Shown: positions 60,753-63,974 of the stretch, in pieces
Numbering within the stretch: position 1 is the stretch's first letter
Layout of the letters: the number at the start of each line of letters is the position of its first letter
Assembly (NCBI GenBank): GCA_963842525.1
Contig: CAWJGT010000009.1
Span: 1,856,001-1,920,000, forward strand
DNA from: an uncultured Holophagales bacterium
GTDB lineage: Bacteria > Acidobacteriota > Thermoanaerobaculia > Multivoradales > UBA5704
Direction of reading: 5' to 3'
DNA: 64,000 bases
Translations under genes and position numbers: made by a program
The notes under the pieces: model-generated
The model's database searches: none
The model's input: only the letters and a program-made list of their open reading frames with translations
What the model was told of the DNA's origin: nothing

Positions 60753-63502
60753 GAGAATGGGAGCACGACGACACGGAACCCAATGAAGTCGCCGCGGTTG
60801 ACCGGCTCGCCCCAGCGGCGGCACGCACAACGGGCGAGCCTGGAGTCGAAGAAGCAAGAGCCGCCGCGGACAACCCGGAGGGATTGCGAAGGTGCTTCGA
60901 GATCCTCACGGCCATCCGTGCTCACGTAGGGATACGCCTTATCGACGCTTCTCGTCCACTCCCAGACATTGCCGCTCATCTCTTCGCATCCGGAGGGGCT
61001 GGCTCCTCCAGGGAAACAACCGACGGCACTGACCTCTCCGACTCCGCTCTCACCAACGTTCGCCCGGTCCGCATCGAAGCCGTCACCCCAGGGGTACCTC
61101 CGCCCATCGGTCCCGCGGGCCGCCTTCTCCCACTCCGCTTCGGACGGCAGGGTGACCACCAGGCGTCCGCTCGCGAGACCTTCCCAGAGGCTCCCCGCGG
61201 CTCCGCTCGTTTTCCTCCTTGGGCCAGGCGCTCCGCCGCCTCGCCTTTCAGCTTCTCTCCCAACCAACGGCAGTAGGCCAGGGCCTCGAACCAGGTGACG
61301 AAGATCGCCGGATGGTTGGGGTGGCCTTCCAGAGCCCTGCGGTCCCCGAGCTTCCAGAGAGGTGTCCGCCACGAAGGTGGAGAGCTGCTGGACCGTCACC
61401 GGGTACCGCGCCATATAAAGGGCCGGCAGGACCACTTCATGCTGCGGTCGCTCGTCTCCATAGCTTTCAGGATCGTCCTTCGCGCTCCCCATCCGGAACG
61501 GCCCGGCGGGGACCGCGACGAAACCCAGGAGCGGATCGCACGGCAGGAACCAGCGGTCCGGGTCGAAACGCGGATCGCCCAGCTTCGCCAGGGTACGGCC
61601 GGCCAGGGCCCGCTCGGTGGCGGGAAACCGGCCGTCGCCGAGGAGGCGGACCAGCCAGCGTCGCAGCCGCTCCAGCTTGGGCCGGTTGGCAGGGCTGACC
61701 TGGGAAAGGTTCGCCGATTCGGCTACCGCCTGGCCGGCGAGCTGGGCTCCCCAGGCGTCGGCCAGGTCGTTCTCCGGCGCGTCCGGCTCCCGCCAGCAGA
61801 GGGCCTCGGCAAGCTGCCAGACGCTCGGCACCGCCCCCCGCGCCGCCTTGGCCCCGGCGAGCAGCACCACCTCCCGCCAGCGCGCCGGATCCTTGCGCGC
61901 GAGCTCCGCCACCCGGTCCGGCCACGTGCGCTCTCCAGTAAGATGGCAGGCCGCCAGGTACTCCTGGAACGTGCGGTGCGGGAACGTGTACACCCCCACC
62001 CCGCGAGGCTCCAGCAGGCCCGCCCGGTCCCGCAGGAATTCGACGAGGAGACCGGGCCTCGTGTCGGGATTCCGGCTCACCCGCAGCAGGCTTGCCACCA
62101 ATTCCTTCTCTTCAAGGTCGGCGGTGCCGGTGGTGTCGCCCTGGGCGCCGTGGCATTCGCAGGCCAGCTCTTCGAGCACGGCGCGGACCTTCTCCCGCCC
62201 CACGTTCAGGAACTCGCTCAGGCTCGGCTGCGGCAGCACCGGCTCGCCGCGGGCGTCGAACCGCACCCGCTGCTTCTCCCAGACGTCGAGCAGGAGGTCG
62301 ACGGCGTTCGCGTAAAGCTCCTCCCGCCGTTCCGGCAGGCTGCCCCCGCGCCACGCATGGAGGCTTGCCATCAGGGTCAACAGCAACGGCCGCCGGGCGA
62401 GGCCCAGCAGGCGGTCCCCGGTAAAGACCGCGCGTTCGAGCAGCACTGCGCGGCCCTGTGCATCTTCCTCCGGGAGCCGGCCGAGTGTGGCCATCTGGGC
62501 ATACCACCGCGAGATGAACCAATGGATCTGCCCGCGGCTGAACGGCGCCAGCTCTCCTTCCGCAAAGCCCGGCAGCTTCCACTCCTGGTTGCGGTAGGCG
62601 TAGGTGCGGCTGGTCAGCAGGACCCGGCACTTCCCCAGGCTCTGGCAGAAGCTCACCACCGCTTGGCGGATCTGCTGGCGGCGCGTCTCCGCCTCCGGTA
62701 CTTCGTCGAGCCCGTCGAACAGCACCAGGCCGCCCTGCGTGAGCAGCTCCTCCTTGAGGTGCGGCAGGTACTCGCCGAGCCCGCACGCCTGCAGGTCGCG
62801 TCCGAGGAAGGCCCAGAGGTGCTGCGCCGTGGCCTCCTTGCCACGCTCCGGCAGCCCTGAGGCCGCGAAATCCCGCAGCACGACCCGCACCGGCAGGAGC
62901 GCCTTATGCCGCCAGGGCTGGGGTTTCTTCTCCCCTTCTTCTTCCTCTCGCGGCAGAGGAGAGCGCAACACCTCCAGGTTCACATCCTTCCGGCCGAAGG
63001 CTTCCCCGGCCAGGCAGAGGGCGACGAAGCTCACGAAGGTGCTCTTGCCGCTTCCCGGGTCCCCTAACAGGACGAGGCGGGGATGCCGGTCGAGCAGCGC
63101 CAGGGCGGAGAGGGGGCGCGGCCGATCCTCAGGGATCCCGGCAGGCCGTCCCTTGGAAAGCTTCTCCTCCACGCTCGTGGTGAGCAAGGCGGTGTAGACG
63201 GCATCGAGCCGCAGCCGCGCCTCACGGTCGTTGGCCAGAGCCGGATCGACTCCCGAGAGGGCCAGGGCCTCGGTCTGGCAGACGAGACGATGCAAGTATG
63301 CCGAGCGGAGCGTGGCTGCGTCCGCCCCCGGACCGGGCCGGACATAGGTGGTGACAATGTCGCGCCCAGCCGCCTGCCCACCCGCCCCGGCTGCCACGCC
63401 GCCGGACTGGACGATGGCGCCCGAGCCCAGGAGCTTGGCCTCCAGGGCGGCCACCTGGGCACGAAGGCGTTCGAGCTCGCTCGCGGAGTCAGGAACGGTC
63501 AT
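60740..63502 (-). CDS. NACHT NTPase + FGE-sulfatase (CLec) domain protein
   Basis: [52 protein letters not shown]; two compensating frameshifts around 61210-61355. Confidence 0.92.
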
Positions 63503-63974
63503 CGCCCCGGGTCCCTCGCCCCGTCCGGCCTGCCGAAATGTCGCCTGTTACACTGCCGCCTACCGCGACGCCTCCTTCACCCACCGCCACCGCGCCAGGA
63601 CCCTGGGCAATGGCGCCCGAGCCGTGGAGAGTCGCCTGATAAGACGTGCCCCGGCCAGCGGAGTCGAGGAGCTTCGCCACCTCGGAAGCCAGATCGGGAT
63701 CGGCTTCGAGGATCTTCCCAAGCTGGCGGCGCAGCCCCGCACGAGCGTCGTCGTCGTCCGGGGCCTCGGCGACCTCCTCCGCCGCTCCGAGGGCGCGGGG
63801 GCTCTCTTCCACCGGCTTGCGAAGCTTCGTCCAAAGCTTGCGGCCGAGCTCGAACGCCTCCTCTCCCACCTTCTTCCCTGCCGCCTTGACGGCCTCCGTG
63901 CCGCCGGTGATCAAGTGAGGCAGAACCGGCGCGAGAGCGATTACCAAGGCATCCGCGAGCAGCTTCAGGTCCAT
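63489..63974 (-). CDS. Small helical (Bell-like) protein with a C-terminal Gly/Ala/Val-rich motif
   Basis: AAAGGAGG RBS; hydrophobic N-terminal helix, helical bundle, tail [23 protein letters not shown]; overlaps the NACHT start. Confidence 0.8.

Follow-up and report, generated by a model that had tools for sequence, protein, structure and literature searches.

The stretch of DNA analysed here (the window, 64,000 nt) comes from an uncultured soil Holophagales bacterium of the class Thermoanaerobaculia (Acidobacteriota; GenBank assembly GCA_963842525.1, contig CAWJGT010000009.1, positions 1,856,001 to 1,920,000), and carries at its right end, on the minus strand, two overlapping genes that we describe as a putative amyloid-type signalling pair. 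The first codes for a 161-amino acid protein, hereafter the effector (63489..63974, from the list of open reading frames (ORFs) and the DNA), with a Bell-like helical domain followed by a C-terminal motif; the second codes for a 920-amino acid protein, hereafter the receptor (60740..63502), made up of an N-terminal motif, a NACHT NTPase, a helical region and an FGE-sulfatase domain of the C-type lectin fold. A Shine-Dalgarno sequence, AAGGAGG (63980..63986), stands 5 nt ahead of the effector ATG. The receptor ATG lies 14 nt before the effector stop, and the two ORFs, both as described in an earlier note made from the letters of this DNA, overlap over these 14 nt (63489..63502, minus strand by the ORF coordinates), which suggests that their translation may be coupled.

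Both proteins carry a glycine-rich motif, located at residues 111-145 of the effector (63540..63644, minus strand; 35 residues, three to four heptads) and at residues 21-49 of the receptor (63356..63442, minus strand; 29 residues, found with a profile built from effectors only). The earlier note had quoted the same motif on both sides, and its strings are right, at residues 112-142 of 161 and 20-49 of 920; its statement that the effector ends in the motif holds for the position near the C-terminus, but 19 more residues follow the quoted string. Read from alignments, the motif consists of three to four heptads of the form G-x-G-[A/G]-[I/V]-A-x (GSGAIAQ / GPGAVAA / GxGGVAV / GGxVxGD), with a consensus of 34 residues over 33 effector homologues, and the core common to the effector and receptor versions is the heptad G-x-G-A-[IV]-A. 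In receptors of the Thermoanaerobaculia clade the motif is one residue shorter than that of the effector, in the second heptad; a helix-like stretch of 14 residues precedes it in the window receptor. Comparison by BLASTP of the effector with the first 101 residues of the receptor yields one alignment of 33 residues (42% identity, E 0.001), and the similarity begins slightly ahead of the motif, at PD.ASE.

An E value of just 0.001, together with the Gly/Ala/Val-rich composition of the segments, would also suit a chance likeness of two low-complexity Gly/Ala-rich stretches in a GC-rich genome, but a genome-wide scan refutes this explanation. A hidden Markov model (HMM) of 35 columns, built from 33 effector C-termini and from zero receptor sequences, was run against the 101,991 stop-to-stop ORFs of at least 50 amino acids in the 9.95-Mb genome. 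Four ORFs were found at E<0.01, the fifth best having an E value of 1.1, and all four belong to two adjacent pairs: the window effector (E 3.6e-18, 67 bits) and the window receptor (E 1.3e-3, 20.5 bits), and a paralogous effector on a second contig, C28 (E 3.9e-16), with the large ORF adjacent to it (E 1.7e-5). Because the motif HMM matches only two effectors and the NACHT genes adjoining them, chance resemblance is excluded for all practical purposes; the recurrence of the pairing in other genomes, to which we now turn, refutes it as well.

A scan of species-representative genomes gave 31 related loci, labelled Thermoanaerobaculia, other Acidobacteriota, Competibacteraceae, Anaerolineae, other Chloroflexota, Desulfobulbaceae including Candidatus Electrothrix, Candidatus Entotheonella and a Burkholderiales metagenome-assembled genome. 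An automatic rule recognises both partners at 15 of these loci: one ORF bearing the motif C-terminally, and one long ORF bearing it on the N-side. Two more pairs were missed by the rule, at L018, where the effector is frameshifted, and at L021, where the receptor is cut by the contig end; the total is therefore 17 of 31, and the check that had been proposed for the motif, its co-occurrence in homologous pairs, comes out in favour of the pairing. Four loci (L004, L008, L017 and L026) end too near the effector for the pairing to be judged, three (L006, L016 and L022) have an effector and no motif-bearing NTPase within the 3-5 kb covered, and seven show other architectures. Gene order is variable, with the receptor upstream in L005, L007 and L020. 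Among the 23 large or NTPase-bearing ORFs with the motif, Pfam finds both FGE-sulfatase and NACHT on 18; the remaining five are two ORFs cut by a contig end (L010 and L021), one with NACHT only, one with NB-ARC and one metallophosphatase fusion. In L010 and L021 a zinc ribbon is found ahead of the receptor-side motif. The motif is kept on both sides of the pair: it is present in the N-termini of 19 other receptors, and it is the best-conserved part of the effector, above the helical domain, with 12 invariant columns in the 33 homologues. Of 201 genomes sampled from the class, 4 have a match to the effector profile itself, and these belong without exception to the family of the window (its own genome and three of four others), so that the system is patchy, as accessory immune genes are.

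In the AlphaFold2 model of the effector monomer, the motif has a predicted local distance difference test (pLDDT) score below 50 and four short predicted strands; low confidence in the monomer in spite of high conservation is what one would expect of a stretch whose fold forms only upon assembly. The core tetrad of RHIM is [IV]-Q-[IVL]-G, whereas the present motif reads A-I-A-Q-G, and the RHIM Pfam model has no match on the window proteins at E<=0.1. The motif had been thought to be possibly an uncatalogued variant on account of its GSGAI string. This is not the case: cluster 'C09' in the supplement of Dyrka et al. (2021; PMC8086366) contains strings nearly identical to it, together with tails of the Streptomyces type, and the main text of the same paper describes the BASS (bacterial amyloid signalling sequence) training samples in its datasets as Bell-side motifs. 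Judged by these strings, the GAIAQG-type motif is already catalogued in the published bacterial amyloid-signalling set; the type is placed here by membership of cluster C09 and not by a number in the BASS1-11 series. When the full text of the literature was searched for the motif strings, no paper of relevance came up.

The motif also resembles the YadA_head repeat of Pfam, below threshold (E 0.026 to 0.001), and this weak likeness to a left-handed beta-roll favours a different view of what the motif does. It could be a non-prion, stoichiometric homotypic adaptor, a defined small beta-roll or beta-solenoid heteromer, comparable to YadA-head repeats or to Death-fold/EAD adaptors, that docks the effector on the receptor oligomer with no self-propagating templating. 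The motif is almost invariant across phyla, with no pair-specific divergence, as a fixed docking module would be, and effector-associated domains (EADs) in the same kind of systems work by homotypic interaction (Kaur et al., 2020; PMC7159879; here and below, statements taken from this paper and from Dyrka et al., 2020, Ibarlosa et al., 2024, Kibby et al., 2022, Dore et al., 2023 and the experimental literature on BASS motifs refer to the parts of these sources available to us). Nevertheless, a chain contributes about 28 residues, not enough for a self-stable beta-roll, and the motif is disordered in the monomer model. Moreover, the N-terminal domain and the motif type fall within a family and a dataset defined as amyloid-signalling, and the Pfam EAD models match neither window protein. 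We therefore regard a purely stoichiometric adaptor as unlikely.

The N-terminal part of the effector links the pair to the Bell family. Nothing in a Pfam scan of the 161-residue protein lies above cut-off. Homologues number 196 at E<=1e-3, most of them of 146-163 amino acids, and since M1 and D2 are nearly invariant in the alignment of 33 homologues (and invariant in 12 sequences), the start codon is fixed. AlphaFold2 predicts seven helices (residues 3-14, 18-23, 26-36, 38-57, 59-70, 75-91 and 93-107) with a pLDDT of about 90 over most of the helical domain, which, from the model and the profile search, we delimit as residues 1-107 (63654..63974, minus strand). The first helix, within a stretch of 21 residues at the start of the protein, is hydrophobic; the helical character ascribed earlier to the effector is thus supported by a confident model. 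A profile of the N-terminal domain (A3), searched among 1.84 billion representatives, matches 2604 clusters at E<=1e-3, of which 1170 remain at E<=1e-10. Most matches are proteins of 130-160 amino acids with varied short tails rich in G/N/Q/V, and a few are the N-terminal domains of proteins of 500-1000 amino acids; among the best 150 matches, 146 proteins were newly returned, 119 of them of at most 200 amino acids, and the GAIAQG motif HMM matches 30 of the 146. The commonest other tail, 'ASGERS[IV]A..G..V.TGD', aligns to the second half of the GAIAQG motif. At 54 loci with tails of the 'ASGERS[IV]A' type (about 35 Streptomyces records, as well as Microbispora, Nonomuraea, Micromonospora, Actinoplanes, Kitasatospora, a cyanobacterium and Chloroflexota), an HMM of the N-terminal domain of the window family matches 48, with E values from 1e-7 to 1e-41. 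These matches show, by indirect evidence, homology between the effector N-terminal domain and the Bell family, by way of actinobacterial proteins with tails of the published type and not by way of the reference proteins ONI86675.1 and Q9RDG0. PF20701 (HetE-N), precomputed on four distant homologues, was considered and rejected: the current Pfam scan did not reproduce it, and the own genome contains no match to it.

Bell domains were described as helical, of about 100 amino acids, with a hydrophobic first helix and an acidic residue at position 2-3, in proteins mostly of 120-140 amino acids that are rarely fused to NOD-like receptors (NLRs) and form collinear pairs with them, 42% of which overlap (Dyrka et al., 2020; bioRxiv 10.1101/2020.01.06.895854). 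The window effector has an all-alpha N-terminal domain (residues 3-107) with a hydrophobic first helix and an acidic residue at position 2, and is short (161 amino acids, the published class being of 120-160 amino acids). The layout of the two genes likewise matches the Bell/BASS architecture of that work, as the earlier note had recognised.

The receptor shows the features of a NACHT-type STAND protein. The NACHT NTPase module (residues 143-335; 62498..63076, minus strand) scores 37.5 bits with Pfam PF05729, against a cut-off of 26.7, and includes a Walker A motif (GDPGSGKST, from residue 147); LFDGLDE, at residue 261, resembles Walker B. The FGE-sulfatase domain (residues 661-912; 60767..61522, minus strand), of the C-type lectin fold and presumed to be the sensor, scores 134.8 bits with PF03781, the cut-off being 23.3; it corresponds to the C-terminal FGS/CLec domain of the 'antigen receptor type'. 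An NCBIfam scan returned just partial matches of the EgtB/FGE type and a 31-bit EruA P-loop match. A CLec sensor had been noted from the letters as a departure from the usual repeats; the domain is there, but it is not unusual, because bacterial NACHT proteins have two C-terminal domains of the 'antigen receptor-type', FGS being one (Kibby et al., 2022), FGE/CLec sensors on bacterial NACHT proteins were also reported by Kaur et al. (2020), and NACHT-CLec proteins are among the targets of diversity-generating retroelements (DGRs; Dore et al., 2023). We considered diversification of this kind for the window receptor and rejected it: the window has no reverse transcriptase and no template-repeat-like non-coding copy of the receptor 3' end. 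The genome has 18 RVT_1 matches, all outside the window (on the contig, the nearest is about 232 kb off), and a blastn search with the last 601 nt of the receptor found paralogous gene ends only.

The sensor domain of the window copy has one anomaly. Four homologues share the block NHP..V.W..A.AYC.WLG, in place of which the window receptor has about 55 unrelated residues (residues about 717-771; 61190..61354, minus strand, by comparison with homologues); the same window DNA codes for the block in a different frame, and two compensating indels, near 61354 and 61190, hold the receptor ORF open. In a metagenome contig from run X1, about 95% alike, a single letter is missing at 61190 and another at 61193. 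A search of sequencing runs listed no RNA run, and the best DNA run has 0.10 of the sampled words; the run contigs with at least 85% likeness to the locus are fragments of relatives. The sensor of the window copy, as read from the DNA, is thus partly out of the ancestral frame, by either decay or assembly error. Carried further, this would make the pair a decaying copy that is no longer functional, its sensor scrambled and its neighbouring paralogue broken: about 55 FGE/CLec codons are out of frame, a NACHT-FGE paralogue just upstream of the effector is in four frame pieces, and the paralogue on contig C14 is in pieces also. However, the receptor ORF is open over 920 codons with the motif, Walker A and Walker B intact, and the effector shares 92% identity with its nearest homologue; moreover, paired compensating indels and several broken paralogues would also result from indel errors in the assembly of a long-read metagenome. 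Loss of function is in our judgement improbable, on a par with the adaptor view discussed above.

Taken together, we read the two genes, with a probability of roughly 65%, as a Bell/BASS-NLR module for cell-death signalling such as Dyrka, Saupe and co-workers have described. From the homology in architecture, the NACHT receptor would sense a ligand via its C-terminal FGE-sulfatase/C-type lectin domain and oligomerise through the NTPase module, thereby gathering copies of the N-terminal glycine-rich heptad motif. The gathered receptor motifs would then take a stacked beta-arch fold, amyloid-like and with one rung per chain, that may serve as a template for the same motif on the co-translated effector. 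Templating would release or assemble the helical Bell-type domain of the effector, the hydrophobic first helix of which would attack the membrane, so that the cell is killed or arrested, presumably in an immune response, whether against phage or against non-self. For the proposed templating and membrane attack we draw on published work on BASS1 and BASS3 and on Bab/Agp (BASS11) in E. coli.

Several observations weigh against this interpretation. Searches for a fold related to the helical domain of the effector give little: Foldseek against the PDB has a best E value of 0.33, a wide fold search with VIA-align reaches a best Z of 5.3, in the noise range for helical bundles, and a profile search of the sequences of solved structures finds none below E 0.035, the matches being designed helical proteins. 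The gene neighbourhood, with transporter, PhoD and NYN genes, is no defence island, and PADLOC assigns no defence family to the locus, returning weak P-loop matches only. The mean identity of cognate motif pairs (0.631) is close to that of non-cognate pairs (0.615), a difference reached in 880 of 10,000 permutations and not significant; there is thus no signal of pair-specific co-evolution. The partial loss of the ancestral frame in the sensor counts on the same side, as does the fact that, in the literature available to us, experimental tests are reported for BASS1, BASS3 and BASS11, and neither tests nor structures for the present motif type.

Because the fold searches are uninformative and the executioner role is a proposed one, one may also ask whether the effector instead regulates or inhibits the receptor, perhaps as a decoy capping the N-terminal motif. 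The same motif, however, also joins receptors to effectors that are clearly enzymes (caspase, CHAT, Macro, PNP, metallophosphatase), which take the same position, and a Bell-like domain is fused straight ahead of the motif and NACHT in L009, L014 and L025. In addition, the invariant M-D start and hydrophobic first helix are the published signature of executioners of the Bell/HeLo/MLKL type. A regulatory role for the effector is accordingly very unlikely, well below both the adaptor and the decay explanations, and the cell-death module remains the reading that we prefer.

The combinations in which the motif occurs extend beyond the Bell-type effector. Motif-bearing proteins at the related loci include caspase, caspase with EAD7, CHAT, Macro, metallophosphatase, PNP_UDP-NACHT-FGE and TRADD-N-associated transmembrane proteins (L021, L023, L019, L027, L028, L011 at 837..4277, and L031); EAD7 is found among these loci only at L023, on an unrelated caspase-motif protein. 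Fusions in which part or the whole of an effector-like domain, followed by the motif, fronts NACHT-FGE are present at L009 (1482..4610), L014 (4842..7892) and L025 (2190..5255). With so many effector types, and with direct fusions, the motif behaves as a portable adaptor that connects one class of receptors to many effectors. Possibly, then, the GAIAQG heptad is a distinct and unusually invariant BASS subtype, a common currency wiring FGE/CLec NACHT receptors to effectors of the Bell, caspase, CHAT, Macro, PNP, metallophosphatase and transmembrane types in Acidobacteriota, Gammaproteobacteria, Chloroflexota, Desulfobulbaceae and Candidatus Entotheonella, and each motif would provide one rung, with three to four sides, of a shared beta-solenoid fibril. 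Because there is no pair-specific co-evolution, the pairs on contigs C9 (the window) and C28 could cross-seed, as a network rather than as insulated pairs. We hold this extension tentatively, as less probable than the cell-death module itself and more probable than any of the rival explanations above.

The closest published counterparts are the Bell/BASS-NLR pairs of Dyrka et al. (2020), which also have a helical domain of about 100 amino acids and a C-terminal motif of about 25-30 amino acids repeated at the N-terminus of an adjacent, collinear NACHT protein. The present pair differs in its host, a member of the Thermoanaerobaculia (Acidobacteriota), whereas that work, in the part available, stresses Actinobacteria, Cyanobacteria and Chloroflexi; in its sensor, FGE-sulfatase/CLec, whereas NLR-like proteins were defined there by TPR or WD repeats; and in its motif, a longer heptad form (quoted over 23 residues) of the 'ASGERS[IV]A..G..V.TGD' type. 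For Bab/Agp (BASS11), amyloid signalling leading to abortive infection was demonstrated in E. coli, and a four-strand fold with glycines between the strands was proposed (Ibarlosa et al., 2024; bioRxiv 10.1101/2024.11.07.622273). There, similarly, the executioner is small, helical and related to Bell, ends in an amyloid motif, and is switched on by the protein of an adjacent gene, which has the motif at its N-terminus; the motif sequence of that system is different, and an anti-phage function is shown for Bab/Agp, whereas for the present pair it is putative.

[quoted passage not shown] The system is, however, fungal, and HET-S has two 21-residue pseudo-repeats, in contrast to the single motif copy per protein here; no Pfam match to the HeLo domain is found on the window effector. 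HET-S/NWD2 is an analogue of the present pair, not a relative of it nor a system to which the pair belongs. NACHT-FGS proteins (Kibby et al., 2022; Kaur et al., 2020; Dore et al., 2023) resemble the receptor in having a single C-terminal FGE/CLec domain and an N-terminal effector or adaptor, but many of those described are diversified by DGRs, of which none is seen here, and the adaptor of the window receptor is a motif of the BASS type, not an EAD.

The locus adds a well-documented case of amyloid-type (BASS/Bell) signalling for a Thermoanaerobaculia genome. It also shows a nearly exclusive link of the motif subtype with NACHT receptors that have a lectin-fold sensor, an architecture otherwise discussed as a possible bacterial antigen receptor. 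A near-invariant motif on many effector types is a convenient, testable model for asking whether bacterial NLRs signal through templated folding and whether several receptors can draw on one pool of effectors, although neither question was first opened by the present locus.

The same genome (G000) contains further NACHT-FGE genes. On contig C28, the second pair (L032; 6203..9452, minus strand) is complete, with a 154-amino acid Bell/motif effector and a NACHT-FGE receptor in which the sensor block is intact; this receptor is 58% identical to that of the window and likewise effector-paired. The broken paralogue upstream of the window effector, just past the right end of the window (L033; 7041..9488, minus strand; four frame pieces), is about 37% identical to the window receptor, but its last 432 nt are 86% identical at the DNA level, a pattern that suggests gene conversion or partial duplication of the sensor end; the motif HMM scan of the genome did not detect the GAIAQG motif on it. 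Contigs C4, C14, C23 and C34 hold more NACHT-FGE paralogues without the motif, the C14 copy being the one in frame pieces. About 6 kb away from the C23 copy is a multi-copy RVT_1 gene that scores identically to two other copies and that, as a guess, may be a group II intron rather than a DGR. Finally, downstream of the window pair, at 52773..60303 on the minus strand, are genes for a NYN-domain protein, a PhoD-like phosphatase, a MacB-type ABC transporter and pieces of the HlyD family.

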